Assembly: GCF_009931435.1 (NCBI RefSeq)
Contig: NZ_CP043414.1
Source: Escherichia coli
GTDB taxonomy: Bacteria > Pseudomonadota > Gammaproteobacteria > Enterobacterales > Enterobacteriaceae
Reading direction: 5' to 3' (one strand)
DNA: 64,000 nt
Numbering within the stretch: the first letter of the stretch is position 1; each line of letters starts with the position of its first letter. The notes beneath the pieces are model-generated. The model was not told the origin of the DNA, did not search any database, and saw only the letters and a program-made list of their open reading frames with translations. Positions 37,240 to 62,149 of this stretch are shown piece by piece. The translations under genes were made by a program, and so were the position numbers.

Positions 37240-40198
37240 CCTTAATCGCGTCATCGGATGGTCTGGTTTACTGCTGACGTCTTTATTGAGTACCAGCGCA
37301 CTCGCAGACAATATCGGCACCAGCGCAGAAGAGCTGGGGCTGAGCGATTATCGCCATTTTGTTATTTATCCCCGTCTCGATAAGGCGCTGAAGGCACAGA
37401 AAAATAACGACGAAGCAACCGCCATCCGCGAATTTGAATATATACACCAGCAGGTGCCGGATAATATTCCGCTGACTTTATACCTTGCGGAAGCCTATCG
37501 CCATTTTGGTCATGATGACCGGGCGCGGCTGTTGCTTGAGGATCAACTGAAACGTCACCCAGGAGATGCCCGACTTGAGCGCAGTCTGGCGGCTATTCCA
37601 GTTGAAGTGAAAAGCGTTACGACTGTTGAAGAACTGCTTGCCCAGCAAAAAGCGTGCGACGCTGCGCCGACCCTGCGTTGTCGCAGTGAAGTCGGGCAGA
37701 ATGCCCTGCGGCTGGCACAATTACCTGTCGCCAGAGCGCAACTGAACGATGCGACGTTTGCTGCATCGCCGGAAGGAAAAACGCTGCGAACCGATCTGCT
37801 GCAACGCGCAATCTACCTGAAACAATGGTCCCAGGCAGATACGCTATACAATGAAGCACGCCAGCAGAACACATTAAGCGCGGCAGAACGCCGTCAGTGG
37901 TTTGACGTGCTTCTTGCCGGGCAGCTGGATGATCGGATCCTGGCGCTGCAATCACAGGGGATCTTCACCGATCCGCAGTCATATATTACTTACGCGACCG
38001 CGCTGGCTTATCGTGGCGAGAAAGCACGCCTCCAGCATTATCTCATTGAAAATAAGCCGCTGTTTACCACGGACGCACAAGAGAAAAGTTGGCTCTATCT
38101 GTTATCTAAATACAGCGCCAACCCCGTTCAGGCGTTGGCGAATTATACGGTACAGTTTGCCGATAACCGCCAGTATGTTGTTGGCGCGACGCTACCGGTG
38201 CTGTTAAAAGAAGGTCAGTACGACGCAGCGCAAAAACTGCTCGCCACCCTCCCCGCCAATGAAATGCTTGAGGAGCGTTATACCGTCAGCGTGGCGACTC
38301 ATAACAAGGCTGAAGCTCTGCGTCTGGCACGATTGCTGTATCAGCAAGAACCGACAAATCTTACCCGCCTGGATCAACTGACCTGGCAACTGATGCAGAA
38401 CGAGCAGTCACGCGAAGCTGCCGATTTGTTGCTGCAACGCTATCCCTTCCAGGGCGATGCGCGCGTCAGCCAGACTTTAATGACGCGACTAGCGTCTCTG
38501 CTGGAAAGTCATCCTTACCTGGCAACTCCGGCGAAGGTGGCGATTTTATCGAAACCCTTACCGCTGGCGGAGCAACGTCAGTGGCAAAGTCAGTTGCCGG
38601 GTATTGCAGATAATTGCCCAGCAATCGTTCGCTTGCTGGGCGATATGTCGCCTTCCTACGATGCCGCCGCCTGGAACCGTCTGGCAAAGTGTTATCGGGA
38701 CACGCTACCCGGTGTGGCGTTGTATGCATGGCTTCAGGCCGAACAACGGCAACCGAACGCCTGGCAACATCGTGCGGTAGCCTATCAGGCGTATCAGGTT
38801 GAGGATTACGCCACCGCACTGGCGGCCTGGCAGAAAATCAGTCTTCACGACATGAGCAATGAGGATCTGCTTGCTGCTGCCAATACCGCCCAGGCGGCAG
38901 GAAATGGTGCGGCTCGCGATCGCTGGCTTCAGCAGGCAGAACAACGTGGGCTGGGAAACAATGCCCTCTACTGGTGGCTGCATGCGCAACGTTACATTCC
39001 TGGTCAGCCGGAACTCGCACTGAACGATCTCACGCGCTCAATCAATATTGCGCCTTCTGCCAACGCTTACGTTGCGCGGGCGACAATTTATCGCCAACGT
39101 CATAATGTCCCGGCGGCGGTGAGTGATTTGCGCGCCGCTCTGGAACTGGAACCGAATAATAGCAACACCCAGGCAGCGCTCGGTTACGCCTTGTGGGATA
39201 GCGGTGATATCGCACAGTCGCGGGAAATGCTCGAACAGGCGCATAAAGGGCTACCGGACGATCCGGCACTTATCCGACAACTGGCCTACGTGAACCAGCG
39301 TCTGGATGATATGCCTGCGACGCAGCACTACGCCCGTCTGGTGATTGATGACATTGATAATCAGGCGCTGATAACCCCACTGACCCCAGAGCAAAATCAG
39401 CAACGCTTCAATTTCCGCCGTCTGCATGAGGAGGTCGGTCGCCGCTGGACGTTCAGTTTCGATTCTTCTATCGGCTTGCGTTCCGGCGCAATGAGTACCG
39501 CTAACAATAATGTTGGCGGCGCAGCGCCAGGGAAAAGCTATCGTAGCTACGGGCAACTGGAAGCCGAGTACCGCATCGGACGCAATATGCTGCTGGAAGG
39601 CGACCTGCTCTCGGTTTACAGCCGTGTATTTGCCGATACCGGAGAAAACGGGGTGATGATGCCGGTGAAAAATCCGATGTCCGGCACCGGTCTGCGCTGG
39701 AAGCCGCTGCGCGATCAGATCTTTTTCCTCGCCGTCGAACAGCAATTGCCGCTGAACGGACAAAACGGCGCATCCGATACCATGCTGCGCGCCAGCGCCT
39801 CATTCTTTAATGGCGGCAAATACAGCGACGAATGGCACCCGAACGGTTCAGGCTGGTTTGCCCAAAACCTGTACCTCGATGCGGCGCAATATGTCCGCCA
39901 GGATATTCAGGCGTGGACGGCAGATTATCGCTTAAGCTGGCATCAGAAGGTGGCGAACGGACAGACTATTGAGCCTTACGCTCACGTTCAGGACAACGGT
40001 TATCGTGATAAAGGCACTCAGGGCGCGCAGCTTGGCGGTGTCGGGGTCCGCTGGAATATCTGGACCGGCGAGACGCACTACGACGCCTGGCCGCACAAAG
40101 TCAGTCTCGGCGTCGAATATCAACATACCTTTAAGGCGATTAATCAACGTAACGGAGAGCGCAACAACGCGTTTCTCACCATTGGAGTGCACTGGTAA
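37226..40198 (+). CDS. nfrA: Phage N4 adsorption outer membrane protein NfrA
   Basis: 990-aa product from the ATG at 37226 (MKENNLNRVIGWSGLLLTSLLSTSALA...); overlaps the nfrB 3' end. Confidence 0.9.
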   Translation: MKENNLNRVIGWSGLLLTSLLSTSALADNIGTSAEELGLSDYRHFVIYPRLDKALKAQKNNDEATAIREFEYIHQQVPDNIPLTLYLAEAYRHFGHDDRARLLLEDQLKRHPGDARLERSLAAIPVEVKSVTTVEELLAQQKACDAAPTLRCRSEVGQNALRLAQLPVARAQLNDATFAASPEGKTLRTDLLQRAIYLKQWSQADTLYNEARQQNTLSAAERRQWFDVLLAGQLDDRILALQSQGIFTDPQSYITYATALAYRGEKARLQHYLIENKPLFTTDAQEKSWLYLLSKYSANPVQALANYTVQFADNRQYVVGATLPVLLKEGQYDAAQKLLATLPANEMLEERYTVSVATHNKAEALRLARLLYQQEPTNLTRLDQLTWQLMQNEQSREAADLLLQRYPFQGDARVSQTLMTRLASLLESHPYLATPAKVAILSKPLPLAEQRQWQSQLPGIADNCPAIVRLLGDMSPSYDAAAWNRLAKCYRDTLPGVALYAWLQAEQRQPNAWQHRAVAYQAYQVEDYATALAAWQKISLHDMSNEDLLAAANTAQAAGNGAARDRWLQQAEQRGLGNNALYWWLHAQRYIPGQPELALNDLTRSINIAPSANAYVARATIYRQRHNVPAAVSDLRAALELEPNNSNTQAALGYALWDSGDIAQSREMLEQAHKGLPDDPALIRQLAYVNQRLDDMPATQHYARLVIDDIDNQALITPLTPEQNQQRFNFRRLHEEVGRRWTFSFDSSIGLRSGAMSTANNNVGGAAPGKSYRSYGQLEAEYRIGRNMLLEGDLLSVYSRVFADTGENGVMMPVKNPMSGTGLRWKPLRDQIFFLAVEQQLPLNGQNGASDTMLRASASFFNGGKYSDEWHPNGSGWFAQNLYLDAAQYVRQDIQAWTADYRLSWHQKVANGQTIEPYAHVQDNGYRDKGTQGAQLGGVGVRWNIWTGETHYDAWPHKVSLGVEYQHTFKAINQRNGERNNAFLTIGVHW

Positions 40199-41089
40199 AT
40201 GCGTAAGTTCATTTTCGTATTGCTGACACTGCTTTTGGTCAGCCCTTTTTCCTTTGCGATGAAAGGTATTATCTGGCAACCACAAAACCGTGATAGTCAG
40301 GTTACCGATACCCAGTGGCAGGGGCTGATGAGTCAGTTACGTTTGCAAGGCTTCGATACCCTGGTTTTGCAATGGACCCGTTACGGCGATGCATTCACCC
40401 AGCCAGAACAGCGCGCGTTATTGTTTAAGCGTGCCGCAGCTGCGCAACAGGCTGGCCTGAAGCTGATTGTCGGGCTGAATGCCGATCCGGAATTTTTTAT
40501 GCACCAGAAACAGTCATCCGCGGCGCTGGAAAGCTATCTTAATCGCCTGCTGGCTGCCGATCTCCAGCAAGCCAGATTATGGAGCGCCGTACCTGGCGTA
40601 ACGCCGGATGGCTGGTACATCAGCGCGGAAATTGACGACCTGAACTGGCGCAGCGAAGCCGCCCGTCAGCCTTTGCTGACATGGTTAAACAACGCGCAGC
40701 GGTTGATTAGCGATGTTTCAGCAAAACCGGTTTATATCAGTAGTTTTTTCGCCGGAAACATGTCGCCCGATGGCTATCGCCAACTGCTGGAACACGTTAA
40801 AGCAACCGGCGTTAATGTCTGGGTACAGGATGGCAGCGGCGTGGATAAACTTACTGCTGAACAGCGTGAACGTTATCTACAGGCCAGCGCCGATTGCCAA
40901 AGCTCCGCCCCAGCAAGCGGCATTGTTTATGAACTGTTTGTCGCCGGCAAAGGCAAAACCTTTACAGCGAAACCGAAACCGGATGCAGAGATCGCCTCGC
41001 TGTTAGCGAAACGTTCCTCTTGTGGTAAAGACACGCTCTATTTCTCTCTGCGCTATTTGCCCGTCGCGCACGGCATTCTCGAGTATTAA
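40199..41089 (+). CDS. ybcH: Uncharacterised protein YbcH
   Basis: 296-aa ORF MRKFIFVLLTLLLVSPFSFAMKGIIWQPQNRDSQ... starting directly after the nfrA stop. Confidence 0.85.
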   Translation: MRKFIFVLLTLLLVSPFSFAMKGIIWQPQNRDSQVTDTQWQGLMSQLRLQGFDTLVLQWTRYGDAFTQPEQRALLFKRAAAAQQAGLKLIVGLNADPEFFMHQKQSSAALESYLNRLLAADLQQARLWSAVPGVTPDGWYISAEIDDLNWRSEAARQPLLTWLNNAQRLISDVSAKPVYISSFFAGNMSPDGYRQLLEHVKATGVNVWVQDGSGVDKLTAEQRERYLQASADCQSSAPASGIVYELFVAGKGKTFTAKPKPDAEIASLLAKRSSCGKDTLYFSLRYLPVAHGILEY

Positions 41090-41271
41090 ATCTCCTCCAG
41101 GTAAGTCGGGTACGACCTGGCTTACCTCTTTCGCTCTCGTCAGAATTCCATCAAGATTAATTGCTAAAAAGCGTGCTAAAGAAAGAAGATCGTTATCGGC
41201 GAACGGGCCGATCACTCATGCAGGAAGCATAGATCCTTTGAGCGGAGTTTCTGATATCTGAGGAGTGCGAA

Positions 41272-42033
41272 ATGCAATTGAGCAGCAGTGAACCTTGCGT
41301 GGTGATCCTGACCGAAAAAGAGGTAGAGGTAAGCGTCAATAACCATGCCACGTTTACCCTTCCGAAAAATTACCTGGCCGCCTTCGCGTGCAACAATAAC
41401 GTCATTGAACTCTCAACGTTAAATCACGTATTAATCACCCACATCAACCGTAACATCATCAACGATTATCTGTTGTTTTTAAATAAGAACTTAACCTGTG
41501 TAAAGCCCTGGTCGCGGCTGGCTACCCCGGTTATCGCTTGTCATAGCCGTACACCGGAAGTGTTCCGGCTAGCCGCCAACCACAGCAAGCAGCAACCCAG
41601 CAAACCCTGCGAAGCGGAGTTGACGCGCGCATTGCTTTTTACCGTATTGTCTAACTTTCTTGAGCAATCGCGGTTTATTGCCCTACTGATGTATATCTTA
41701 CGCAGCAGCGTCCGCGACAGCGTCTGCCGCATTATTCAAAGCGATATTCAGCATTACTGGAATCTGCGAATTGTCGCCAGTTCGCTCTGTTTAAGCCCCA
41801 GCCTGCTCAAAAAGAAATTAAAAAACGAAAATACCAGCTATAGCCAGATTGTCACAGAGTGTCGTATGCGTTACGCCGTACAGATGTTATTGATGGATAA
41901 CAAAAATATCACTCAGGTGGCACAATTGTGTGGGTATAGCAGCACGTCGTACTTTATCTCTGTTTTTAAGGCGTTTTACGGCCTGACACCGTTGAATTAT
42001 CTCGCCAAACAGCGACAAAAAGTGATGTGGTGA
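41272..42033 (+). CDS. envY: AraC-family transcriptional regulator EnvY
   Basis: 253-aa ORF with C-terminal AraC helix-turn-helix (...VAQLCGYSSTSYFISVFKAFYGLTPLNY); AT-rich. Confidence 0.85.
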   Translation: MQLSSSEPCVVILTEKEVEVSVNNHATFTLPKNYLAAFACNNNVIELSTLNHVLITHINRNIINDYLLFLNKNLTCVKPWSRLATPVIACHSRTPEVFRLAANHSKQQPSKPCEAELTRALLFTVLSNFLEQSRFIALLMYILRSSVRDSVCRIIQSDIQHYWNLRIVASSLCLSPSLLKKKLKNENTSYSQIVTECRMRYAVQMLLMDNKNITQVAQLCGYSSTSYFISVFKAFYGLTPLNYLAKQRQKVMW

Positions 42034-42078
42034 AGGGCAAAGCGGAAACAGATAAGACTGGCATAAATGAAGAAGAAA

Positions 42079-42123
42079 TGGCGCGCCCTGCAGGATTCGA
42101 ACCTGCGGCCCACGACTTAGAAG
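42079..42123 (-). pseudogene. pauD: 3' fragment of tRNA-Arg(UCU) argU (pauD-like), the prophage attachment-site core (attR)
   Basis: Reverse complement CTTCTAAGTCGTGGGCCGCAGGTTCGAATCCTGCAGGGCGCGCCA matches the 3' 45 nt of argU as I recall it (anticodon loop through the acceptor CCA); the 5' half of the tRNA is absent. Confidence 0.8.
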
Positions 42124-42546
42124 TTCCTAGAACGACATTTTAAGTCAACAACTTACCGCGCCATCTCTGCGCTCACACGTCCCACTACCTCAAAACATGT
42201 AAAGCCTTGCAAGCCATTGCGAGGCCTTATGTGTCTCAGTTTTGTCCCTCTTTTTTGTACTAAAAAACATAGTAATTGAGGATAAACCTCATGCTATTTT
42301 CGCTTATATGCCTCTAAAGGCATGGCACTTAAATAGATAAAAGCACCACAAAAGCATAAAAAAACCACACAGTAAAACCGAAATATGAAACAATAACAGA
42401 TAATTAAACCAAAAACAGATAGCGCATTGTGATAATCATTCAATACTAAACAAAATATAAACAGTGGAGCAATATGTAATTGACTCATTAAGTTAGATAT
42501 AAAAAATACATATTCAATCATTAAAACGATTGAATGGAGAACTTTT

Positions 42547-43500
42547 ATGCGGGCGAAACTTCTGGGAATAGTCCTGACAACCCCTATTGCGATCAGCTCT
42601 TTTGCTTCTACCGAGACTTTATCGTTTACTCCTGACAACATAAATGCGGACATTAGTCTTGGAACTCTGAGCGGAAAAACAAAAGAGCGTGTTTATCTAG
42701 CCGAAGAAGGAGGCCGAAAAGTCAGTCAACTCGACTGGAAATTCAATAACGCTGCAATTATTAAAGGTGCAATTAATTGGGATTTGATGCCCCAGATATC
42801 TATCGGGGCTGCTGGCTGGACAACTCTCGGCAGCCGAGGTGGCAATATGGTCGATCAGGACTGGATGGATTCCAGTAACCCCGGAACCTGGACGGATGAA
42901 AGTAGACACCCTGATACACAACTCAATTATGCCAACGAATTTGATCTGAATATCAAAGGCTGGCTCCTCAACGAACCCAATTACCGCCTGGGACTCATGG
43001 CCGGATATCAGGAAAGCCGTTATAGCTTTACAGCCAGAGGTGGTTCCTATATCTACAGTTCTGAGGAGGGATTCAGAGATGATATCGGCTCCTTCCCGAA
43101 TGGAGAAAGAGCAATCGGCTACAAACAACGTTTTAAAATGCCCTACATTGGCTTGACTGGAAGTTATCGTTATGAAGATTTTGAACTCGGTGGCACATTT
43201 AAATACAGCGGCTGGGTGGAATCATCTGATAACGATGAACACTATGACCCGGGAAAAAGAATCACTTATCGCAGTAAGGTCAAAGACCAAAATTACTATT
43301 CTGTTGCAGTCAATGCAGGTTATTACGTCACACCTAACGCAAAAGTTTATGTTGAAGGCGCATGGAATCGGGTTACGAATAAAAAAGGTAATACTTCACT
43401 TTATGATCACAATAATAACACTTCAGACTACAGCAAAAATGGAGCAGGTATAGAAAACTATAACTTCATCACTACTGCTGGTCTTAAGTACACATTTTAA
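42547..43500 (+). CDS. ompT: Outer membrane protease OmpT (omptin)
   Basis: 317-aa ORF MRAKLLGIVLTTPIAISSFASTETLSFTPDNINADISLG... ending ...ITTAGLKYTF. Confidence 0.93.
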   Translation: MRAKLLGIVLTTPIAISSFASTETLSFTPDNINADISLGTLSGKTKERVYLAEEGGRKVSQLDWKFNNAAIIKGAINWDLMPQISIGAAGWTTLGSRGGNMVDQDWMDSSNPGTWTDESRHPDTQLNYANEFDLNIKGWLLNEPNYRLGLMAGYQESRYSFTARGGSYIYSSEEGFRDDIGSFPNGERAIGYKQRFKMPYIGLTGSYRYEDFELGGTFKYSGWVESSDNDEHYDPGKRITYRSKVKDQNYYSVAVNAGYYVTPNAKVYVEGAWNRVTNKKGNTSLYDHNNNTSDYSKNGAGIENYNFITTAGLKYTF

Positions 43501-43749
43501 GAACGCCAACTAAAATTTCCCCGAGGTGAAAATCGCCCCGGGGAATAACTAGCCATTTCAATGTAACAATTAACCCTTAAAATAAACCCAGAAGGTTATT
43601 AACTAAATCACATAGAAAACCATCAATTATAGTATGTATAAAATAGGCGACAGCAACCCAATTACAAATTAATGGTTCCAGAATATCACATCAAAAAAAA
43701 CGCTGTATAATATTATAATTAACATGTAGACAACTTGTAATAAACATTA

Positions 43750-44499
43750 TCAGTCAATTGTTTTGTTTATTCCATCTGTGACGCCGATTATTTTCTCAAA
43801 ATAATGAGATGGCGTGACACCATAATAATCTTTAAATGCACATATGAAATATGAAGTACTGTTATAGCCACATTTCTGGGCTACGACATTGATAGAATAA
43901 GAGTTTGAAGTTATGAGTTTTTTTGCATACCTCATCCTAGTATCTCTCAATATTTCAGTAAATGACGTTCCTTCATCCCTTAATCTTTTTTTTATTAAAC
44001 TTTCACTCGTATAAATCAATTCCGCAATATCTTTTAAATGCCATTGCCGCTCAATATTAAAACTGATTATTCCAGTAATTTTACAGGTAAATGTATTTAT
44101 ATTTGTTAGTATAAATGAATTTACACTTTCGCGTTTTTTGAACATGGCAAGTAAGGATATACATAGTCTTTCTTTTAACCAAAGGGAGTGTGAGTCTGCT
44201 ATTTTAATCCCTTCAAACAGAGAAAAAACAAGCGATAATGGAGGTTCCTCTTCAGCAATATAGCCATTCTTATCAAGAGTAAATTTGCCAGGCAGCTCAT
44301 TATTCACGTCGATAAAAAAGGATAAACATGTTTTCTTATCTATATCAACAATTCTTAGTTTAGAGGGGCATACTGGTAACTCCCTTCTAATTTTGTCGCT
44401 TACAATAAACAATGAATTTTTTTTGAACGAGATAACTCTCCTGTTTATAATTAAATCAAATGATTGACAGATGAAAACTACGGAGCAAACATAATCCAT
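43750..44499 (-). CDS. appY: AraC-family transcriptional regulator AppY
   Basis: 249-aa [36 protein letters not shown]...; very AT-rich, with a long AT-rich upstream region (44500-45100). Confidence 0.88.
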
Positions 44500-45058
44500 C
44501 TTGCACCTATCATAAAATTAAAACAAGTTGATAGTAGTCAAATAACAACCAATTAAATACACAATCATAATCAGGATGATGTGCATTTATATTTTTATAC
44601 ACAAAATTATAGTTTGCAAATTTTAATAAATTTCATTTAAGATTAAATTATTATATGTATGTTGTTTTTTATTCTAACTTATTTCAAAGTTACATTTTTC
44701 AACGCTTACTATGCTTTTTATTAACATAAACTCACTACAACGCACCTGAAACCTCTTGCTATATATATGTCAACCGTTTGAATTTAAAATAAAAAGAGTA
44801 TCATTTTTACTTGCATTTCTTATCAAGTCACATTCAACAACAGTAAAAAAACATTATTAGAACCATTCAATTAACAAAAAACCAACATCCAGCTTGCTTA
44901 ATTTTTCTTTATTAAACGATATTGAAAATCAATTGATAAAATACATCTAAACAACCTTTTGGGGCGCAAAAGCATAACATCAAACAAACAAATAACACAC
45001 CGAAAAAACTCACAATTAATAACCTATGATATACATACTGTTTATTATGGTTGAATAA

Positions 45059-45200
45059 GCCACTCGATATCTGGTGCTACGGAAGTGTCCACACGGTTTA
45101 GCAGCACCCGATACTTTTTTCAGGCTTCCAGCAACGATCTTTCTTCCTCCGTTGCGATTTCCAGATCTACAGCATCCTGCAGTGGCGCAATATACTCACT
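45059..45200. repeat. Direct repeat copy A of the tfa 3'-end segment (partner at 46119-46260)
   Basis: About 140 bp at roughly 85-90 percent identity to 46119-46260, by manual alignment. Confidence 0.7.
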
Positions 45201-45305
45201 GAATTCCTGGATGTAGAACTGTGTAGTGACGGTCTTCCAGCCATTCGGCTCCTGCTGTATTGAAGCATACCAGGCTATTTCAATATCGCTATGCTGCGGC
45301 AGCAT
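45120..45305 (-). pseudogene. tfaX: Tail fibre assembly protein C-terminal remnant (tfaX-like)
   Basis: 61-aa ORF ending ...[23 protein letters not shown], homologous only to the C-terminal part of the intact Tfa at 46095-46679; lies in a duplicated roughly 140-bp segment. Confidence 0.7.
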
Positions 45306-45443
45306 TTAACCCCTTGTAATTCATTGCCATAATTGATTTAATTCACAAATAAAACTATAACATGGTGAAATTAATAAAAAAACACAGATGATGGGGCTAG
45401 AATTTACACACCACTTACCCTAAAGCTTTATGACTGGTGGGTT

Positions 45444-46040
45444 TTGGGAGTATCAAATCGGCTTGCATGGGGATGTCCTACAAAGGAACACCTTCTTCCA
45501 CACCTTCTTCCACACTTTCTGGAACATTTAGGTAACAACCATCTGGATATTGGTGTTGGAACTGGGTTTTACCTTACTCACGTACCTGAGAGTAGTCTGA
45601 TATCTTTAATGGATTTGAACGAAGCTAGCCTGAACGCGGCATCTACAAGGGCTGGGGAATCAAAAATTAAACATAAAATTAGCCATGATGTTTTTGAACC
45701 TTATCCCGCGGCGTTACATGGTCAATTTGATTCCATTTCCATGTCTTACCTTCTTCACTGCCTGCCTGGAAATATATCTACAAAAAGCTGTGTAATACGC
45801 AATGCGGCGCAGGCCTTAACTGACGATGGAACTCTATACGGAGCCACAATTCTTGGCGATGGAGTTGTGCACAATAGCTTCGGTCAAAAACTGATGCGCA
45901 TTTACAATCAGAAAGGCATCTTTTCAAACACAAAAGATTCCGAAGAAGGCTTAACACATATACTCTCAGAGCATTTCGAGAATGTTAAAACCAAGGTTCA
46001 AGGTACTGTAGTAATGTTTTCCGCTTCAGGAAAAAAATAG
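45444..46040 (+). CDS. ybcY: Putative class I SAM-dependent methyltransferase (YbcY-like), possibly N-terminally truncated or a pseudogene
   Basis: 198-aa ORF with glycine-rich motif I (LDIGVGTGFY); the only in-frame start is a TTG, with no upstream ATG or GTG before the stop at 45375. Confidence 0.55.
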   Translation: MGVSNRLAWGCPTKEHLLPHLLPHFLEHLGNNHLDIGVGTGFYLTHVPESSLISLMDLNEASLNAASTRAGESKIKHKISHDVFEPYPAALHGQFDSISMSYLLHCLPGNISTKSCVIRNAAQALTDDGTLYGATILGDGVVHNSFGQKLMRIYNQKGIFSNTKDSEEGLTHILSEHFENVKTKVQGTVVMFSASGKK

Positions 46041-46094
46041 CATCCAACCGCAGCATGTTCTTGCTTAAGACGTGCTGCGGCATAATCCCAATGA

Positions 46095-46679
46095 TTACTC
46101 CCTGACAGGGTTCGTAGGCCACTCAATATCAGGTGCAGTTGATGTATCAACACGGTTCAGCAACACCCGATATTTTTTCCAGGCTTCCAGCAATGAGGTT
46201 TCTTCCTCCGTTGCGATTTCCAGATCTACAGCATCCTGAAGTGGCGCAATATGCTCACTGGCTACCTGCATCAGGCTGTTTTTTGTTTCTTCCGCCTCCC
46301 GAATCCGGAACAGTTTTTCTGCTTCTGCATCTTTCACCCAGGCTGTACCGTTCCACTTCTGAAACTCCCCTTCCGGCGATAACCAGGTAACATTTTCCGG
46401 TAACGGACCGAGTTCAGAAATAAATAACGCGTCCCCTGACGCTACGTCATAAACCGTTTTACCCCGATGATCTTCAACGAGATGCCACGATGACTCATCA
46501 CTGTTGAAAACAGCCACGAAGCCAGCTGGAATATCTGGCGGTGCAATGTCGGTACTGTTTGCTGGCAGACCTGTATGAGGCGGAATATATGCGTCACCTT
46601 CACCAATAAATTCATTAGTTCCGGCCAGCAGATTATAAATTGTTATGGTCCGTGGTTGTTCACTCATTCTGAATGCCAT
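46095..46679 (-). CDS. tfa: Tail fibre assembly protein Tfa
   Basis: 194-aa [56 protein letters not shown]...; start overlaps the stf stop. Confidence 0.9.
46119..46260. repeat. Direct repeat copy B of the tfa 3'-end segment (inside the intact tfa)
   Basis: Partner of 45059-45200. Confidence 0.7.
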
Positions 46680-49600
46680 TATGCAAGCCTCACAATATAG
46701 TTAAATGCGATGTTTTTGACGGTGTTTTCCGCGTTACCAGCAGCGTTAACGGTGATGGTGTGTCCATGTGAGCCAATCGCAACCGAGTGCGTATGAGCAC
46801 CAATACCGACAGTATGTGCGTGTGCACCTGCGCTTGCTGCAGTGCCGGACAGTGAGTGGGTATGAGCACCATCTGATGATGTCTTCCCTGCATTACGAGT
46901 CTGGCCACTACCGCTTGTTGTGCTCATAATCCCCGCGCTTGGATTTGAAATCGCGGTATAACCATTAGGGAAAATGCTCGTGTTCGTGCCACCAAATGCA
47001 CCGGAACTCTTGTGTTGGTGCGCACCGGCACTATTTGCGGTCCCGCTAATACTATGGGTATGCGCCCCGGTGTTATTCGTGGATTTGGTTCCGTAATCAA
47101 ACGACGATGTGGTTTTCGTCCCCAAATCCGTACTGGATGCGCTGGCGCTGTGGGTATGCGATTTAATGCCGTCCTGTTCCTGAGACAATACGGCCCGACC
47201 ACTGGCAGGTTTGCCCTTAATCGTCCAGCCACGCATATCAGGGATCACGCCTGACGGATAAGCCGCTGCAAGTTTCGGGTAGGCAGATTTGTCAAAAGCC
47301 TGCCCCTGCATCAGGGCATAGCCAGACGGAACGGTATCTGATGGCCACGGGATTGGTGCGCCGACTGGGTAGCTTTCTGGTGGAAGATTTTTCGAGGTAT
47401 AAACTTCTGCCCAGTCTTCCTCAAAACCATAGCCATCTCTTGAGGAACGGTAGAACAGACCTCCATTTCTGTAATGCGCCTTCATCTGCAGGGTCCGGCA
47501 ACTTCCGACTCCGGTATAGAAGTTAACCAGAATATAGCTGTCGCCAGAGCGGGTGACATTGTAAGCGCCTGATTCGGCATTCCAGGGAACGCCACCATCC
47601 GCATCGGCATATGTATCCGTTGCCCTTCTGGCAAAAGCAGCCACATGCGCGGCGGTTAAAGTAATATCTTTGGAACCATCAAACTCAACACCAGAAACCA
47701 GTCTTGGCGTTTGCAGCTTTGTTGCTGTTAATGCATTACCGTTCAGACTTGCGGACAGTTTGGTTCCAATAATCAGTTCGCCGGTTGCGTTATCAATAGC
47801 AAACGGTCTTAATGTATTCCAGCCACCATAAACATCACCTTGATTGGTAAGCAGCAGGTAAGTTTTAGCGCCATCATTACGCCATAATGCACCATACTCC
47901 CCACCTATCATTCGAATCTGATTACCACCACGCGCTACAATTTCGTCTGTGGCAAAAAGTTTTTTGCACGACAAGTTATCGTTAACGATTAACGAATGAG
48001 ACTCATAAAAACCACGCCCACTCTTAAAATCAAGGATAACGTCCGCCGCGATACATTCAGTCGCCGGATTTGTTGCCCCAAACTTATAGGTCGTATCATT
48101 AACAACGAGATCAGCACCAGGTGCGGATATTGACAGGCCATCTTCGATAAACGCAAAAACAGGGAAAGCAGCGCCATCAACATAGAACACAGAGCGCAAA
48201 TCATCGCCCTTATTACTCATCATTATTGAGTGGATGGCTCGTTCATTGTTTTGATATTGCCAGAACATTCCATAAGCATAACGCCCCCTGTCAGTCCAGC
48301 CACCAGGCATAACAAATCCGTTAAACTCGCAGTTATTCATCGGATCGCCTGCGGTTCGCGTTGCCGTGGTGATAATGACCCTTGATGCCAGTTCGCTTAC
48401 TGAGCCAGCAGAACGCATAACAACAACAGGGTAATATTTTCCAGATGTTGCACCTGCAGGAGCGTTAACCCGCACATAACGCATACCACGCTTATCAGCA
48501 AAGTCTGTTTTACTGACCGCGTTAATGTTGTTCAGGAAGCGTCCCTTATCGGGTATATCAGCGCCGTTCTGGTCTTTCTGCAGACGTTTCTCTGCATTGT
48601 CATAGGCTGATTTTACTGCCTTTGGCGTTGCCGCCAGCGTTTCAGACGTACTGTTGGTCGCACTGCTGAGCTGTACTACCCCCTTTTTCGTCGTGCTCGC
48701 ATCCTCAAGCGCCACGGCGGATGCAATATCCTCTGCCCGTTTTGCCGCTGTCTCGGCGCGCGTTGCCGCGGATTCCGCCGTACTTTTGCTCTGAGCTGCC
48801 GCCGTCGCACTGCCAGCTGCCTCTGTCGCCTTCGTGGATGCCGTCGTGGCGCTGCTCTTCGCTGCTGACGCTTGTCTGGTCGCCTCATCTTTTGAAGCAG
48901 ACGCAGATGATGCCGATGACGCCGCCGAACTGGCTGACGATGCGGCAGCCGTTTTTGAGGATTCTGCGCTGGTTTCCGACGCTTTCGCGTTCGTTTCGGA
49001 TGTCTTCGCTGCGGAAGCAGAACTCGCTGCTGCGCTGGCCTGTTCAGTGGCTTCGCCAGCCTTCGTTGTGGCTGTTGAAGCAGACGATGCGGCACTTTCT
49101 GCCGACTTTCCGGCAGCGGTGGCACTGGCTGAGGCCTGCCCGGCACTTGTTGACGCGGCGCTGGCAGATGATGCAGCCGCTGTTTTTGAGTCTGCTGCTG
49201 CGGAGGCACTCTGTTCCGCTGCCGTCTCAGAAGACTTAGCGTTCGTCTCGGACGTTTTTGCCGCCTTCGCGGAATTTCCTGCCGCCGTTGCCGAGGAAGC
49301 TGCGCTACTGGCGCTCGAGGATGCGTTCGTTTCTGATGATTTCGCTGCCTCTTTTGAGGCCGCCGCATCCCTGGCTGAGGTGGCAGCTTCTGACGCTTTC
49401 CTGGTCGCGGTGGATGCAGAAGTGGCTGCTGATTGTTGTGACGCTGCGGCATTCGTTTCTGACGTTTTCGCCGCACCGGCACTGGTGGCCGCCGCGCTTT
49501 TTGAGGACTCTGCAGCGGCAGCACTTTTTTCCGCTTCAGTGGCCTTTGCTGATGCCGTTCCTGCGCTGGAAGATGCTGACTGAGCCGACGACGCGGCCTG

Positions 49601-50086
49601 TCCGGCTGACGTGCTGGCTGCGCGTGCTGAGCCTGCAGCATCAGTCGCATGGGTTGCCGCCTCACTGGCAGATGTGCTGGCATCGCCGGCTGACTTCTTC
49701 GCGGCTGCCGTGTTTTGTGCCACCGCGGACGCGTTACGCGCCACCTCTTCCACCATCAGTTCAAAACGGCGCAGAGCCTCCGGACGGGCATCATCCTCCG
49801 TCATGGCACCGAGAAAATCATTCAGCGTACCGGGTCGGGAATCTTCATACACGGTGATGGTCCCGGCATGTGACGGCGGGAATCCTTCCACCAACAGAAT
49901 AACGCTGTACTGACCGTACTCAACGTCCATGCTGTAACGCCCGGCTTCATCCGGATTTTCTGAGGCCAGCGTGTTCACCACCACCGCGGTGCTGTTACGT
50001 TTTGCTTTCAGCTGGATTGTGCAGTTCTGTACCGGTTTTCCTGTGCCGTCTTTCAGTACACCTGAAATCTTTACTGCCATATTCAC
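46679..50086 (-). CDS. stf: Side tail fibre protein Stf (lambda Stf / StfR-like)
   Basis: 1135-aa [40 protein letters not shown]...; long Ala/Ser/Thr-rich repetitive shaft; C-terminal His-rich GAHTHS-type motifs and ...[13 protein letters not shown]. Confidence 0.9.
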
Positions 50087-50096
50087 CCCACAAAAA

Positions 50097-50118
50097 AGCC
50101 CGCCTGAACAGGCGGGCT
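50097..50118 (-). terminator. Intrinsic terminator hairpin between lom and stf
   Basis: agcccgcct / aggcgggct stem with a 4-nt loop, preceded on the plus strand by aaaaaa (a U-tract on the minus-strand transcript). Confidence 0.6.
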
Positions 50119-50144
50119 GTCATAACACTGTGTTACCTGGCTAA

Positions 50145-50744
50145 TCAGAACTTATAACCGACACCCACGATGAAACCGTCAGTGCGCCAGTCGCCACTGC
50201 CGGAGCCTTCATAAGCAATATCAATGGCCACGGATTCGGTCGGGTTAAACTACACGCCAGCTCCCCACGCCAGAGACGTGTTGCTGTGGCGACCGTCATC
50301 ACTTCCGGTCAGCACGTCGTGCGTTTTCCCCTTGTTGTCAGTTACGCGGAGATAATCCCCGGAGAAAGTCGACACACGGCTGTAAGCCATACCCGCCATC
50401 GCATACGCGCTGAACCATTCATTCACGCGCACAGACGGCCCCACCATCACGCTGAACCAGCGGTTACGCACGGAATCTTCATGCCAGCGGGTATTGCTGT
50501 AACGGGTAAGCTGGCGATTCTTGTCTCCTGCATAGCTGAATGACGTCACCAGCCCCAGTGTGTCCGTAAACTCATAACGGTATTTCACGTTAATCCCGTT
50601 AAGATCATCGCTGCCGGGAACGTTCGTCGAGGCATGAAGATACCCCGCGCTCAGCGTGGACTGATGTTCAGATGCCCATGCAGGCGCACCGGATACGGTC
50701 AGACAAATGGCTGCGGACAAAATGGCGGCATAAAGTTTACGCAT
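50145..50744 (-). pseudogene. lom: Lom-like outer membrane protein gene interrupted by an in-frame amber codon
   Basis: 164-aa ORF MRKLYAAILSAAICLTVSGAPAWASEHQSTLSAGY... stops at TAG (50252-50250); the same frame continues FNPTESVAIDIAYEGSGSGDWRTDGFIVGVGYKF to a TGA at 50147-50145, with Q expected at the TAG position. Confidence 0.75.
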
Positions 50745-50813
50745 AATTACCTCTCGCTTTTCTGCAATAAAAAAGGCACCATTTCTGGTGCCCTTATATG
50801 GGTTATAACAATT

Positions 50814-53800
50814 TCAACGAATACTGATGCCGGAAGCGGCTTTTTTGGTCACAATCACCGTACAGTCGGTGATATTACCTGCCCACTGATTGCCTTTATG
50901 GAAAACCTTAAACTCCAGAGTGACGCTTCCCCTGCCACTCGGCATATCAATAACCGCACTGTAGCTACCGGGAATGGCCCCTTTAGTTTCTCTGGATGCG
51001 ATTAATACACCGTTTTTGCGAACTTCAAAACCATAACCCGTGTATCTTGTACCTCCCGGGTTATTACCACTTCCCGGATCGCTATACGCTATTCCGTTAA
51101 AGATAATGGGCGGAATAATGATTTGACGGTCAAAGTTATGATCATCGCTGATGGTGACTGTAACCGTCCCGTTTGGTGTTTCCGTGTTACCCCACGTACC
51201 AGCCTGTTTCGGAAATGATTTGGATACAGCTTTAACGAAGTCACCTCTGACCTGAGTCGCCTCCAGCATGCCCTTAATTGTACAGTTTTCATTTACCGTG
51301 ACATTGTTGAGCGTCCCGGCGTTCGCATTCACACTGCCACTGATATCCGCATTTTTAGCGGTCAGCTTTCCGTCTGATGTCAGGGAAAATACCGGTGGAT
51401 TTCCACCGCTGGTAATGGTGGGGGCCGTCAGGCGCTTCAGGAACACGTCGTTCATGAATATCTGGTTGCCCTGCGCCACAAACATCGGCGTTTCATTCCC
51501 GTTTGCCGGGTCAATAAACGCGATACGATTGGCGGCAACCAGAAACTGGCTCAGCTTGCCTTCCTCCGTGTCCTCCATGCTGAGGCCAATACCCGCGACA
51601 TAATGTTTGCCGTCTTTGGTCTGCTCAATTTTGACGCCCCACATCGCATTCCATTTATCGTTAGCGTCCTTCCACTCTTTCGAAAACTCATCCAGTCTGC
51701 TGGCGTTATCCTCCGTCAGATCAACTTTTTCCAGCAGCTCTTTACCGAGATGGGATTCGGTTATCTTGCCTTTGAAAAAATCCAGGTAACCTTCCGCATC
51801 ATCGCTCGCCCGACCAACAGCCTCCACGAATGCCGATTTGCCAACGGTGTTCACACTGCGAACGTAAAAATAATAATCATGGCCCGGTTTGATATTGATA
51901 CTGGCGGCTATCCAGTACAGTGCCGTACCAAGATAACGCGCGCTGGTTTCAACCTGCCTGATATCCGCAATCCGTTTTTCCGAGAACCAGAACTCAAACT
52001 GTACCGTCGGGTCATAAACCGCAAGATGCGGCGTGGCGGTTATCTGAAAATAGCCCGGCGTCAGCTCAATCCGCGACGGCGCTGCCGGTGCGGCAATCCG
52101 GAACGATACCGACGCCGGATCGCCCTGCTGTCCCCACGCATTTACCGCCCGGACTGTCAGCGTGTACCGTCCCAGCGCCAGTTGCGTGAAGCGGTATGTG
52201 GTTTCCGTCGTCCGGGCCGTGCTGACCAGCCGCTCACTGCCGTCATCCGCTGTTACGGTCAGACGGAGCAGGAAGCTCACGCCCTTCACCACCTTCGGCG
52301 TGTCCCAGCGCGCCAGCACCTGATATTCCCCGCTGTCTGCGGTGACTTCGGCAGTCAGGTGCTGCACCGCTGGCGGCGTGACACCATTCACCGTGCCGCT
52401 CTGGTCGCCGTCAAAGTGCGCCCCGTTATCCACGATGGCTTCTTTTTCCGGTACATGCTGCACGGCGGTGATGGCATACGTGCCGTCGTCGTTCTCACGG
52501 ATACTCACGCAGCGGAACAGGCGCTGGCGCAGCGTCGGCAGCTTCAGCCCCCACACGCTGTATTCAGCAACGCCGTCAGGAACACGGCTCACTTTCACCT
52601 TCACGCCGTCGGTGACGGACTGAACCTCCACGCTGACCGGATTGCCACTTCCGTCAACCAGGCTTATCAGCGTGGTACCGGAGGATGGCAGCGTGATTTC
52701 ACGGTCGAGCGTCAGCGTCCGGGTCTGGCTGTTTACCGCCAGCACGCGCCCGCCGGTGCTGATACCGGCATAGTCATCATCACAGATTTCAATGACATCG
52801 CCCGGCACATGGCGAAGCCCTTCTGCGCCCACGCTGAAGTCCACGGTCTGCGTTTCCAGCAGTTCTGTTTTAATCAGCCATAGCCCGGCGCGATGTGCCT
52901 GCCCCCGGCTGGTACAGCCAAAGGCATCCATCTTCGTGACGTTACGACCGTAACGGGCAATGGCCTGCGTGTCCTCCACAAGCTCTGTCGCCGTCTCCCA
53001 GCCGTTATTCGGGTCAATCCAGTTCACCTCAACGGCATTATGGCGGTCCTTCAGGGCGCTGAAGCTGTAGCGGAACGGCGCGCCATCATCCGGCATCACC
53101 ACATTACTGCGGTTATAGGTCCACACCTTATCCGATGGTCGGTCCTGCACGAACGTCAGCGTCTGCCCGTTCCATACCGGCATACAGCGCATCGCCGAGC
53201 AGAAATCACTGAGCACATCCCACGCCTTGCGCTGTGTGGTCAGGTACGCATTACAGGTGATGCGCGGCTCCGTGCCGCCAAAGCCGTCCGGCACTGACTG
53301 GTCGCAGTACTGGCCGATGACATACAGCGCCCATTTATCCACATCCGCCGCACCAAGACGTTTCCCCATGCCGTAGCGCGGATGGGTCAGCATATCCCAC
53401 AGACACCAGGCCATGTTGTTGCTGTATGCCGGTTTAAACGTTCCGTCCCAGATACCGCTGTATTGCCGCGTCTGCGGGTTATAGTTCGACGGCACCTGCA
53501 GAATGCGCCCGCGCAGATGATAATTACGGCTCACCTGCTGGCTGCCGAACTGCTCCGAATCCACCTGCACGCCGACCAGTGCCGTGTTCGGGTAGCCCTG
53601 TTTCACATCGATGATTTCGGTGTATGACGACCAGAGCGTTTTGTTCTGCAGCTGGTCTGTGGTGCTGTCCGGCGTCATCCTGCGCATCCGGATATTGAAC
53701 GGGCGCGGCGGCAGGTTACCCACCACCACCGAGGCCAGATACTGCGAGGTGGTTTTGCCCTTAATGGTGATGTCTTTTTCCGTCACCCAGCCACCATTAC

Positions 53801-54227
53801 GCTGGATCTGAACCAGCAGGCGGACTTCCGACGGATTCCTGTCCCCCTTTGAGGTGGTTTCCACCAGTGCCTGCACGCCGAAGGTAAAACGCAGTCGGTC
53901 AATGTTTGCCGACGTGATGGTCCGGGTGATCGGCGTGTCGTATTTCACTTCCGTACCCAGCACCGTCTCGGAGCCGGAGGATTCAAATCCCTCCGGCGGT
54001 GTCTGCTCCTGCTCACCGGCCCGGAACACCACCGTGACGCCGGAGATATTGGTATTCCCCTCACTGTCCAGCACTGGCGTACTGTTCAGCAGCACGCTTT
54101 TTAATCCATCCACCGGACCTTCAACCGGCCCTTCGCTGATGGCATCGATCACACTCAGCAACTGCGTGGACTTCAGGTTGTCCTTCGCTTCGCGCGGAGT
54201 ATGCCCCTTACTGCTGCCTTTACCCAT
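50814..54227 (-). CDS. J: Tail tip / host specificity protein J
   Basis: 1137-aa [57 protein letters not shown]..., lambda J-like over most of its length with a diverged C-terminus. Confidence 0.93.
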
Positions 54228-54286
54228 TCCTCACGCTCCATAAACGACAAAACCGCCCGGAGGCGGTTTCACATAAACGTTTTTCA

Positions 54287-54958
54287 TCAGCGACCAATCA
54301 CCACAACCTGACCACCATCCCCTTCGTCTGCCGTGCTGATCTCCTGAGAGACCACCCGCGACCCCACGCGCATTTCACCGTACAGAACCGGCAGAACATT
54401 GCCCTGGGCAACCATGTTATCCAGTGAGGAGAAATAGGTGTTCTGTTTGCCGTTATCCGTTGTCTGTGTACGGGGAGTTCTGGCTTTCGGTGCCAGCATC
54501 TGCGCCACACCACCGAGCACCATACTGGCACCGAGAGAAAACAGGATGCCGGTCATACCACCGGCCCCAATGGCTGCCCCCCATGCTGCAAGGGTGGCCC
54601 CGGCGGTAAAGAATGATCCGGCAATGGCGGCAGCCCCCAGGACAATCTGGAATACGCCACCTGACTTGGCCCCGGCGACTCTGGGAACAATATGAATCAC
54701 AGCGCCATCAGGTAGAGTCTCATGTAACTGCGCCGTTAATCCGGACGTGCTGACATCCTGCCCGGCAATCCGTACCTGATACCAGCCGTCGCTCAGTTTC
54801 TGACGAAACGCCGGGAGCTGTGTGGCCAGCGCCCGAATGGCTTCAGCCCCCGTTTTCACACGAAGGTCGATGCGGCGGCCAAATCGTTGCAAATCCCCGT
54901 AAAGGCAGATGCGCGCCATGCCCGGTGACGCCAGAGGGAGTGTGTGCGTCGCTGCCAT
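54287..54958 (-). CDS. I: Tail tip assembly protein I
   Basis: 223-aa ORF MAATHTLPLASPGMARICLYGDLQRFGRRIDLRV... (lambda gpI-like). Confidence 0.9.
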   Translation of the reverse strand: MAATHTLPLASPGMARICLYGDLQRFGRRIDLRVKTGAEAIRALATQLPAFRQKLSDGWYQVRIAGQDVSTSGLTAQLHETLPDGAVIHIVPRVAGAKSGGVFQIVLGAAAIAGSFFTAGATLAAWGAAIGAGGMTGILFSLGASMVLGGVAQMLAPKARTPRTQTTDNGKQNTYFSSLDNMVAQGNVLPVLYGEMRVGSRVVSQEISTADEGDGGQVVVIGR

Positions 54959-55599
54959 TTGTCGGTATACCTCTCTCGTTTGCTCAGTTGTTCAGGAATA
55001 TGGTGCAGCAGCTCGCCATCACCACAGTAAATGGCGGCATGATTCGGCACCGATGAACCAAAACAGCACAGCAGCACATCGCCCGGTTGTGCTGATGACA
55101 ACGGCACCTGATACAGCCCTGTGGCCTCCAGATTATCCAGATAGAGATTCTGACCGTGACGCCACCAGTCATCCTCGCGATGAAAATCCGGCATCTCAAT
55201 CCCCGCCAGATGATAAGCATCCCGGAATAGCGTGTAACAGTCCGTCACCCCGTGTTCAAAGCGCCGCCCGGTGAGATGCGGCACACAGCGGAACTTATGA
55301 ATCGTCCCCCGGCAGACCAGCCACCACGGCAAATCACTCTGCACCTGCAGCCGCCGGTCAGCCTCACTCAGCCAGGGCAGACCACCGGGGTGGCTGTGGA
55401 CCAGCGCCACAATCTCACCCTGCATCTCTGCCCGCAGCCAGTCCTCCGGCGACATCCGGAAATACTCCTCCGGCTCACCGGAGATATTCACGCAGGGAAA
55501 ATATCTTTCCCCTTCCGGCGTTCTCACCACGAAGCCGCACGACTCCGCTGGCGCACATCGCCGGGCGTGCGCCAGAATCGCTGATTCTGTCTCTGTCAT
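54856..55599 (-). CDS. K: Tail tip assembly protein K (JAMM/MPN plus NlpC/P60 domains); 3' boundary relative to lambda K uncertain
   Basis: 247-aa ORF MTETESAILAHARRCAPAESCGFVV... with HSHP motif; starts 5 nt after the L stop and overlaps I by 103 nt. Confidence 0.8.
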   Translation of the reverse strand: MTETESAILAHARRCAPAESCGFVVRTPEGERYFPCVNISGEPEEYFRMSPEDWLRAEMQGEIVALVHSHPGGLPWLSEADRRLQVQSDLPWWLVCRGTIHKFRCVPHLTGRRFEHGVTDCYTLFRDAYHLAGIEMPDFHREDDWWRHGQNLYLDNLEATGLYQVPLSSAQPGDVLLCCFGSSVPNHAAIYCGDGELLHHIPEQLSKRERYTDKWQRRTHSLWRHRAWRASAFTGICNDLAAASTFV

Positions 55600-55604
55600 G
55601 GGAT

Positions 55605-56303
55605 TTACTGCGAAAGTTTGTTAATGGAAAGGAAGCCGCCAAAGTTGCCGACATTATTGCGGAACTTACAGCCACTCAGGCATTTGCTGCATTTATCCTT
55701 CGTGATATCGGACGTCGGCTGATCATATTCATCCGCGACAGCCGGACCTTGATAACCGCACTCATCACCGCGATAGGTCCAGGTGCAGGTATTAGCCAGC
55801 ATGATGCGCCCCGGAAAAACGGCACCATCCGTTTCCGTCGGTGTGGACAACACAAAGGAGGCACTGACCGCACTCAGTTCGCTGCACTGCTCGATGCGCC
55901 AGCGGCTGATCACCTCCTGCTCCGGATCGGCGTCGCTGTTTCCGTTGACGAAGTTCACCGCATCCAGAAAACGGGCGTAAACCTTACGCCTGACCACCGT
56001 TCCGCCGACCAGACTCTGCAGGTCTTCCGCCATCCCCGTGACCATGCCGTGCAGGTTAGAAACCGTCAGTATCGGACGGGCAGCACTGCCCTTGCCGTTC
56101 AGTTCAAATCCCGTCCCCTGAATGGGGTATGCCTGATACTGCCGCCCCTGCCAGGTAACCGGCTCACCTTTTTCGTTTTGCTCATTACAGAAAAAATAAC
56201 GTTCTCCACCGACCTCTGTCAGGTCGATTTCCCAGAGCACCACGCTGGCCGACTGCTCCGCACGGGTGCATTCATTCAGTGTTTCCTGCCGGATATCCTG
56301 CAT
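55605..56303 (-). CDS. L: Tail tip assembly protein L
   Basis: 232-aa ORF MQDIRQETLNECTRAEQSASVVLWEIDLTEVGGERYFFCNEQ... Confidence 0.9.
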   Translation of the reverse strand: MQDIRQETLNECTRAEQSASVVLWEIDLTEVGGERYFFCNEQNEKGEPVTWQGRQYQAYPIQGTGFELNGKGSAARPILTVSNLHGMVTGMAEDLQSLVGGTVVRRKVYARFLDAVNFVNGNSDADPEQEVISRWRIEQCSELSAVSASFVLSTPTETDGAVFPGRIMLANTCTWTYRGDECGYQGPAVADEYDQPTSDITKDKCSKCLSGCKFRNNVGNFGGFLSINKLSQ

Positions 56304-60039: not shown

Positions 60040-60054
60040 CGCTGACTCTCCGGA

Positions 60055-60795: not shown

Positions 60796-60802
60796 ATCGT
60801 CC

Positions 60803-61773: not shown

Positions 61774-61784
61774 ACATCCCCCTT

Positions 61785-62138: not shown

Positions 62139-62149
62139 AGCGCCTCCCG

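Follow-up and report, generated by a model that had tools for sequence, protein, structure and literature searches.

Features and base composition at the attachment site

The window, i.e. the whole stretch of 64,000 nucleotides of Escherichia coli DNA that was analysed, carries the attR core of a prophage between the gene envY on the host side and the genes ompT and appY on the phage side. Gene identities were taken from the annotation of 99%-identical genomes, and the features are as follows.

40199..41089, + strand: ybcH (DUF4434), resident host gene; GC 0.524, GC3 0.562
41272..42033, + strand: envY, AraC-family regulator, host side of attR; GC 0.463, GC1 0.429, GC2 0.366, GC3 0.594
42077..42123, no strand: attR core, 47-bp copy of the 3' end of tRNA-Arg(UCU) argU; pauD in K-12
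42124..42546, + strand: phage P' arm and ompT leader/promoter region; GC 0.338
42547..43500, + strand: ompT, omptin outer-membrane protease; GC 0.434, GC3 0.409
42124-43503: ompT module, occurring with or without appY
43504..45075, - strand: appY cassette, 1572 bp, coding sequence and an upstream region of about 550 bp (GC 0.27); GC 0.296
43750-44499, - strand: appY coding sequence; GC 0.317, GC3 0.284
45045..45212, - strand: tfaX, tail-fibre-assembly remnant; GC climbs here, right edge of the deep AT trough
45362..46040, + strand: ybcY, class I SAM-dependent methyltransferase; GC about 0.42
46095..46679, - strand: tail fibre assembly gene; GC 0.479
46679..50086, - strand: stf, side tail fibre gene; GC 0.537, start of the GC-normal structural arm, which continues to 64000

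The ybcY gene has a 2-bp deletion near its 5' end, identical to the deletion in K-12, and because of this deletion it is likely a pseudogene. The attR core lies on one side of the cargo genes ompT and appY (within 42124-45075), and the tail-fibre genes tfa and stf follow on the other side, from 46095.

An earlier note on this DNA had described positions 41100-45450 as an AT-rich block, and the GC content bears this out, being 0.383 compared with 0.527 for the whole window. Twelve non-overlapping windows of 4351 bp taken elsewhere were used as a comparison set, having a mean GC content of 0.538 with a standard deviation of 0.029. The block lies about 5.4 standard deviations under the mean of these twelve windows, which is well beyond chance, and the 4351-bp window with the lowest GC content in the 64 kb begins at 41723.

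The limits of the block were determined by a likelihood fit with three segments, which placed the low-GC block at 42227-46039 (GC 0.361), all on the phage side. Finer segment fits gave 0.469 for the envY region, 0.287 for the ompT leader, 0.435 for ompT and 0.287 for appY together with its upstream region, and direct GC values were 0.338 for the ompT leader, 0.434 for ompT, 0.317 for appY and 0.27 for the region upstream of appY. This means that the block is not uniform, and that the deep trough is confined to phage DNA, beyond the 47-bp argU fragment (42077-42123). Across 42200-42600 and 43300-45000 the GC content is 0.20-0.35, an AT content far over the host average for several hundred bp, and the minimum (0.20-0.30) is reached in the non-coding parts 42240-42540 and 44500-45000.

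Every host window of equal size (minimum 0.406) has a higher GC content than the ompT module (0.404) or the appY cassette (0.296), and the cargo has a GC content of 0.30-0.40 versus 0.56 for the phage structural windows. The boundary in base composition falls at the att core. The description of the AT-rich island as spanning both sides of the core is weakly true, in that envY is mildly low, but the deep trough is all on the phage side.

The att core and the unoccupied argU site

The argU 3' fragment covers 42079-42123, and counting two more bases (42077-42123) the identity between attL and attR is 47 bp, a length also given in PMC6379469. The boundary between host and phage is at 42123|42124. 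To the left of the core, the arm matches the empty site of strain ATCC 8739 identically. To the right, the sequence recurs without any difference as the P' arm of attP in Kati and 2G7b, two free phages with the arrangement int, core, ompT leader.

For the empty-site test, a synthetic query of ybcH-envY-argU-fimZ was compared with 5426 complete E. coli genomes. In 2406 of these the four genes are contiguous with no prophage, e.g. in ATCC 8739, and the site in this strain has neither ompT nor appY.

A second att core was not found within the window at up to 3 mismatches, the core at 42077-42123 being the sole copy. A blastn-short search for a degenerate att remnant in 40000-47000 gave a next-best match of 10 bp with E = 0.37, which is at chance level. 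A scan for tRNA genes gave no call anywhere in the window; the length of the argU fragment does not suffice for a call, and attL is situated past position 64000. The proposal of successive insertions at this tRNA-derived site is not supported: there is a single att core in 40000-47000, and the DNA right of the core is the P' arm found in the attP of free phages. A composite tRNA-site island was tried as a candidate and rejected: the layers do not each have an att repeat of their own, and envY is present at empty sites.

Origin of envY

On the host side of the core the GC content does dip mildly, envY (GC 0.463) ranking in the low 4% of equal-size host windows, at the 4th percentile and within the host range (minimum 0.406). 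The GC3 of envY (0.594) is mid-range among the 24 host ORFs of the window (0.476-0.655), and its GC1 of 0.429 is under the GC1 of every one of these ORFs. In Citrobacter and Salmonella the AdiY genes, flanked by adiA and adiC, resemble envY in this respect, having a GC1 of 0.42-0.47 and a GC2 of 0.34-0.37. Since these AdiY orthologues of other genera also have low GC1 and GC2, the low GC content of envY reflects protein composition.

EnvY and AppY are 44% identical over the C-terminal 96 residues, and both match the GadX, YdeO and HilD models under the equivalog cut-offs. By sequence they are members of the AdiY/EnvY/AppY group of AraC/XylS regulators with a C-terminal AraC-type double helix-turn-helix. 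EnvY-like genes of Citrobacter and Salmonella were considered as orthologues of envY and rejected, as their position between adiA and adiC identifies them as AdiY.

The envY gene was found in 4098 of the 5426 genomes and is missing from about a quarter of E. coli. The junction envY-attR-ompT occurs in 1583 genomes, and ompT without envY occurs in about 1047 genomes of B2 type, such as Nissle, so that envY and the phage cargo have distributions that vary independently. In E. albertii the gene order is nfrB-nfrA-ybcH-envY-argU-fimZ, with envY syntenic beside argU. An envY adjoining argU was found in E. coli and E. albertii only, the other close relatives being AdiY at the adi locus with 58-63% identity. 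In the E. albertii allele GC3 drops to 0.451, and between this gene and argU there is a 726-bp insert of 33% GC; a 160-aa ORF in this envY-argU spacer had no NCBIfam match. In B2 strains, the spacer still contains 34 bp with 85% identity to the envY 3' end, and this trace together with the E. albertii outgroup points to loss of envY in B2 rather than gain.

These data also bear on a different reading, which we consider unlikely, where envY was an ancient horizontal gain of AT-rich DNA in the Escherichia ancestor near argU, with silent sites that have since ameliorated. As a second part of this reading, of similarly low probability, the argU neighbourhood would be a hotspot of several ages and envY unrelated to the present prophage. 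The restriction of an argU-linked envY to two species, its GC1 below that of any host ORF in the window, the low GC3 and the AT-rich insert in E. albertii, and the absence of envY from B2-type strains all fit such a gain. However, the low GC1 and GC2 are common to chromosomal AdiY orthologues, so protein composition suffices, the B2 trace and the outgroup favour loss, and neither att nor integrase remnants are present. The data are accounted for equally well if adiY was duplicated within Escherichia.

We conclude that envY is an ordinary resident Escherichia gene outside the mobile element. The earlier note had placed it in the same AT-rich island as ompT and appY, which does not agree with its presence at the 2406 unoccupied argU sites or with its host-like GC3. 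An envY at unoccupied sites is the very result that the note had named as refuting its reading. This is a useful correction, as envY belongs to the resident chromosome and should not be counted in the mobile element.

The phage cargo, its probable silencing and related systems

Both ompT and appY are carried by the free phages Kati and PhiR68_2 with 98% identity, while the free phages 2G7b, ev243 and PhiR49_1 carry ompT together with an alpha/beta hydrolase. The two genes occur together in 822 genomes, and ompT without appY occurs in many more, with the break at position 43503. Elsewhere, in strains and phages, the appY slot holds a 1926-bp alpha/beta-hydrolase cassette or nothing. Because the ompT module and the appY cassette have unlike distributions among genomes, we regard them as separable cassettes that take part in modular exchange inside the phage. 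The two genes thus behave as phage cargo, being absent at empty att sites, present in free phages beside attP and int, and exchanged in a cassette-like manner.

Published K-12 data were used for H-NS. Table 1 of PMC3661553 lists three K-12 'promoter islands' that are H-NS-bound (column H = 'A', all ChIP-chip data sets). Converting the coordinates, the island tfaX/appY (1016 bp) corresponds to 43950-44965, appY/ompT to 43479-43801 and ompT/envY to 42232-42582; all three fall on the phage side of the att core, and 42124-45040 has 100% identity with K-12 derivatives. Expression of appY depends on H-NS, ArcA, RpoS and DpiAB (PMC10057817), and regulated expression of the cargo genes is described in PMC10057817 and PMC8544407. 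Two further papers (PMC4797297, PMC11228462) have envY and appY in lists only and add nothing on silencing. With respect to the suggestion that H-NS silences the whole block, these published data (PMC3661553, PMC10057817) support silencing for the phage-side AT-rich stretches, and nothing was found to indicate that it extends over envY.

A scan of 40000-47000 with sigma-70 and terminator consensus patterns gave 16 promoter-like sites versus 16.1 in composition-keeping shuffles. The high-affinity H-NS motif TCGATAAATT, allowing up to 2 mismatches, had 55 matches versus 54 expected from such shuffles and no local enrichment.

The authors of PMC3661553 propose that such 'promoter islands' evolved in place. 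Applied here, the intergenic AT-richness would not be a mere reflection of the donor but would have arisen after transfer by selection for recruiting RNA polymerase and H-NS, in agreement with the lowest GC content (0.20-0.30) being in the non-coding parts 42240-42540 and 44500-45000. This is improbable, since the coding sequence of appY is itself AT-rich (GC 0.317, GC3 0.284), and the same sequences are present in free phages with 98% identity, so that the composition travels with the phage and does not arise in each host.

Integration always sets the phage ompT leader 513 bp downstream of the host gene envY. There is a slight chance, judging from this arrangement, that envY and ompT are coupled in their regulation as a host-phage unit spanning the att core, for which EnvY acting on ompT, read-through from envY, or an H-NS filament spreading from the phage arm into envY may be candidate routes. 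Both genes are strongly induced when the temperature is raised from 23 to 37 degrees C (PMC8544407), and among UPEC isolates higher ompT expression is correlated with having envY (PMC6854850). The latter correlation is confounded, as envY-less B2 strains carry a diverged ompT leader.

It is extremely improbable that a single AT-rich island straddles the att core and was built by successive site-specific insertions next to the argU fragment, envY representing an older layer of that process. In favour of this, the GC content of envY is under that of neighbouring host genes, envY is 46 bp from the core and argU is a known integration site. Against it, 2406 genomes have envY beside an unoccupied site, envY has the same gene neighbours in E. 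albertii, there is one att core and no remnant in 40000-47000, integrase is absent on the envY side, and envY has a host-like GC3 and varies independently of ompT/appY.

The AT-rich block is very probably the accessory-gene ('b-region' or moron) end of a DLP12-family lambdoid prophage at argU, and consists of foreign, unameliorated DNA brought into the site by the phage itself. The prophage would have entered by Campbell recombination into the 3' end of the tRNA-Arg gene argU. Right of the core, phage DNA begins with the cassette of ompT and its leader, followed by the cassette of appY and its long upstream region, the two being independently exchangeable, then by the moderately low-GC stretch tfaX'-ybcY-tfa and finally by the GC-normal tail genes. 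Left of the core, envY, ybcH, nfrA and nfrB are resident Escherichia chromosome, where the amino-acid composition of the AdiY/EnvY subfamily lowers GC1 and GC2 and the silent sites of envY stay host-like. As judged from the literature, H-NS on the very AT-rich intergenic stretches would keep appY and ompT low, and release would follow counter-signals such as anaerobiosis, starvation, stationary phase and 37 degrees C.

The locus is a textbook case of phage-borne lysogenic conversion by a protease (OmpT) and a regulator (AppY), whose genes arrive as unameliorated AT-rich DNA that H-NS would hold down. AT-rich ompT/appY cargo beside argU is already known and is no new biology.

Among the closest known systems is the right end of the K-12 cryptic prophage DLP12 (attR/pauD, ompT, appY, tfaX, ybcY), which has an identical gene order. 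The identity to K-12 derivatives is 99.1% over 40000-46500, with the same 47-bp attR and the same 2-bp frameshift in ybcY. The two differ in what adjoins the cargo end, which is a complete module of tail and head genes here (stf, J, tape measure, major capsid) and a fusion of a truncated tfa with a terminase remnant in K-12 DLP12. Kati, PhiR68_2, 2G7b, ev243 and PhiR49_1 share the layout int, attP core, ompT, appY or hydrolase, tfa', methyltransferase, tfa, stf at 97-98.5% identity, and the arms of their attP match attL and attR of this prophage identically; they differ in being free genomes, some with a DNA invertase between the methyltransferase and tfa.

The b region and morons of lambda (lysogenic-conversion genes such as lom and bor), whose map position is well established, are likewise non-essential AT-rich cargo located from the tail-fibre genes to attP, with host-interaction genes, which in the present prophage are those for an outer-membrane protease and a regulator. 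The gene content differs, since appY encodes a regulator of host operons (PMC10057817) and not a surface protein. With the H-NS-bound K-12 'promoter islands' (Panyukov and Ozoline 2013, PMC3661553) there is no difference, as the sequences are the same. Finally, tRNA-linked islands built by tandem integrations are alike in the neighbourhood of a tRNA fragment and in low GC content, but the present locus has a single att duplication and a single prophage, and envY is present when the site is empty.

Composition and gene order around the att core

The AT-rich stretch at 41100-45450 (the block) is a known ompT/appY cargo region of the type carried by DLP12, the K-12 cryptic lambdoid prophage; it holds nothing new and is of low interest. 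The window is E. coli chromosome, and the gene order was read from annotated genomes 99% identical over 40000-46500 as cus, nfrB, nfrA, ybcH, envY, ompT, appY, tfaX remnant, ybcY, tail-fibre assembly and side tail fibre. Past 46.7 kb the tail and head genes of a lambdoid phage follow as a complete module (J, tape measure, major capsid); this module (46700-64000) has only about 97% identity to other genomes.

Features around the att core (gene coordinates from the annotation of 99%-identical genomes)
40199-41089, ybcH
41272-42033, envY, GC 0.463
42079-42123, att core, a perfect copy of the argU (tRNA-Arg) 3' end between envY and ompT, GC 0.64
ompT leader, GC 0.338
42547-43500, ompT, GC 0.434
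ompT-appY spacer, GC 0.317
43750-44499, minus strand, appY, GC 0.317
appY upstream region, GC 0.27
Right of appY, in this order, tfaX remnant (tfaX'), ybcY methyltransferase, tail-fibre assembly gene and 1135-aa side tail fibre gene; GC of tfaX'-ybcY-tfa 0.42-0.48

The two ends of the integrated prophage, attL and attR, are identical over 47 bp, as published for DLP12 (PMC6379469). No complete tRNA was found by ARAGORN in the whole 64 kb, and attL therefore lies beyond 64000.

The earlier note had described one AT-rich block across both sides of the att core. The AT-richness is real: the GC content is 0.383 in the block and 0.527 over the window as a whole, and the block value is about 5.4 standard deviations below twelve other non-overlapping windows of the same size (mean 0.538, sd 0.029). 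Uniformity was not found: the block is heterogeneous, and a three-segment likelihood fit places the low-GC part at 42227-46039, essentially on the phage side (right of the core) only. Models with more segments divide it at 42240, 42540, 43560 and 45060. The GC content of the ompT module and the appY cassette is below every equal-size window in 41 kb of host DNA, and that of envY falls on the 4th percentile of such windows, within the host range.

Elsewhere in the window, GC also dips in the host part at 9000-11000, though less deeply (about 0.45); this patch includes a minus-strand ORF of 394 aa (9274-10458; GC 0.451, GC3 0.476). Within the stf tail-fibre gene, GC peaks at 0.59-0.61 over 48500-50000 and the AT skew is strongly negative, falling to -0.415, which suggests that this segment is repetitive or of unusual composition.

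Ancestry of envY at the argU site

The reading as an island built by successive insertions fails for envY, which was rejected as a compositional member of the block. Its GC3 of 0.594 is in the middle of the range of the 24 host ORFs of the window (0.476-0.655; ompT 0.409, appY 0.284), and the GC shortfall is confined to codon positions 1 and 2 (GC1 0.429, GC2 0.366). The nearest EnvY relatives outside Escherichia (58-63% identity) have their genes flanked by adiA and adiC in Citrobacter, Kosakonia and Salmonella arizonae/diarizonae, and are therefore AdiY, an AraC-family regulator encoded at the adi locus. Chromosomal AdiY genes are likewise low (GC1 0.42-0.47, GC2 0.34-0.37), so envY owes its mild AT-richness to its protein subfamily, and this is no mark of prophage cargo.

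The empty site, constructed as predicted from ybcH-envY, an intact argU and fimZ, was searched against 5426 complete E. coli genomes, and 2406 of them contain it without interruption. In these, envY, assigned by the earlier note to the same island as the phage cargo, is present at an unoccupied argU, precisely the outcome that the earlier note had named as refuting its reading. In ATCC 8739 the query matches in one piece (100% coverage, 99.5% identity), annotated as nfrB, nfrA, ybcH, envY, tRNA-Arg and fimZ. envY was found in 4098 genomes and the envY-attR-ompT junction in 1583; in the remaining envY-positive genomes the match ends exactly at 42123 and then runs on into an intact argU. A B2-type group of about 1047 genomes, Nissle 1917 among them, carries ompT with a diverged leader and without envY. 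These counts mean that envY and the phage cargo vary independently. Furthermore, nfrB-nfrA-ybcH-envY-argU-fimZ is syntenic in the E. albertii type strain, and the B2 spacer keeps a 34-bp remnant of the envY 3' end; envY is thus ancestral in Escherichia and was lost in B2.

B2-type strains, as at the A0 34/86 locus (6770-10400), lack both envY and the whole sfm-fimZ cluster, folD directly adjoining argU. Of the prophage these strains retain only ompT-ybcY-tfa'-int'; several positions of the attR core differ from argU, and the identity of the ompT leader to the window is no more than about 89%. In E. albertii NBRC 107761 (5452-6176) a 726-bp insert of 33% GC separates envY and argU, with a 160-aa ORF without NCBIfam match and no second att copy; the envY GC3 is 0.451 in the E. 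albertii allele versus 0.594 in E. coli.

Cargo exchange within phage genomes

Both ompT and appY are present, at about 98% identity, in the free temperate phages Kati and PhiR68_2; in phages 2G7b, ev243 and PhiR49_1 ompT is accompanied by an alpha/beta hydrolase. The order in Kati and 2G7b is exo/recT, int, att core, ompT, appY or hydrolase, tfa', methyltransferase, tfa, stf, lom and J, the cargo occupying the position of the b region of lambda. The attP sequence is made up of the left arm of attL, the core (45 bp) and the right arm of attR, which fits the prediction of the Campbell model. In Kati, the depositor-annotated 'tRNA-Pro' at attP (5936-6019) begins with 45 bases of argU 3' core and is probably a mis-called att fragment.

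In 822 E. coli genomes ompT and appY are present together; many more have ompT but lack appY, and there the match breaks off at 43503. The slot from the ompT stop codon to tfaX' has one of three contents: the appY cassette (1572 bp, GC 0.296), the hydrolase cassette (1926 bp, GC 0.404) or nothing. The three contexts were previously described for UPEC, EHEC and EPEC (PMC6854850). The window has only one att core, and no remnant was found between the ompT and appY modules. The successive insertions at one tRNA site that had been proposed are therefore replaced by cassette exchanges within phage genomes.

H-NS binding in K-12 and relation to DLP12

The proposal of H-NS silencing is already in the literature, and for the phage-side stretches is borne out by published K-12 binding data. 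Three 'promoter islands' have been reported in K-12, tfaX/appY (1016 bp), appY/ompT and ompT/envY, which overlap predicted genomic islands and are H-NS-bound in all ChIP-chip data sets (PMC3661553). Converted arithmetically to window coordinates they are located at 43950-44965, 43479-43801 and 42232-42582, respectively, all of them to the right of the att core, in phage DNA. appY is controlled by H-NS, ArcA, RpoS and DpiAB (summarised in PMC10057817). Strong induction at 37 degrees C is on record for both ompT and envY (PMC8544407); this is compatible with H-NS-type control but is no proof of it. Simple scans for the promoter consensus and the H-NS motif showed no enrichment over composition-matched shuffles. 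A possible terminator of envY transcripts in lysogens is located about 80 bp into the phage arm (42204-42225, plus strand), 3' of envY and 5' of the ompT promoter region: a GC-rich hairpin with a T-rich run behind it.

The sequence at 42124-45040 is 100% identical to that of K-12. The whole cargo end (42124-46500) is 99-100% identical, including the 2-bp frameshift in ybcY. Past the cargo end DLP12 is truncated, with a tfa'-terminase' deletion junction, whereas the window has the full tail and head module; the prophage here has the look of a DLP12 relative that is mosaic or less decayed.
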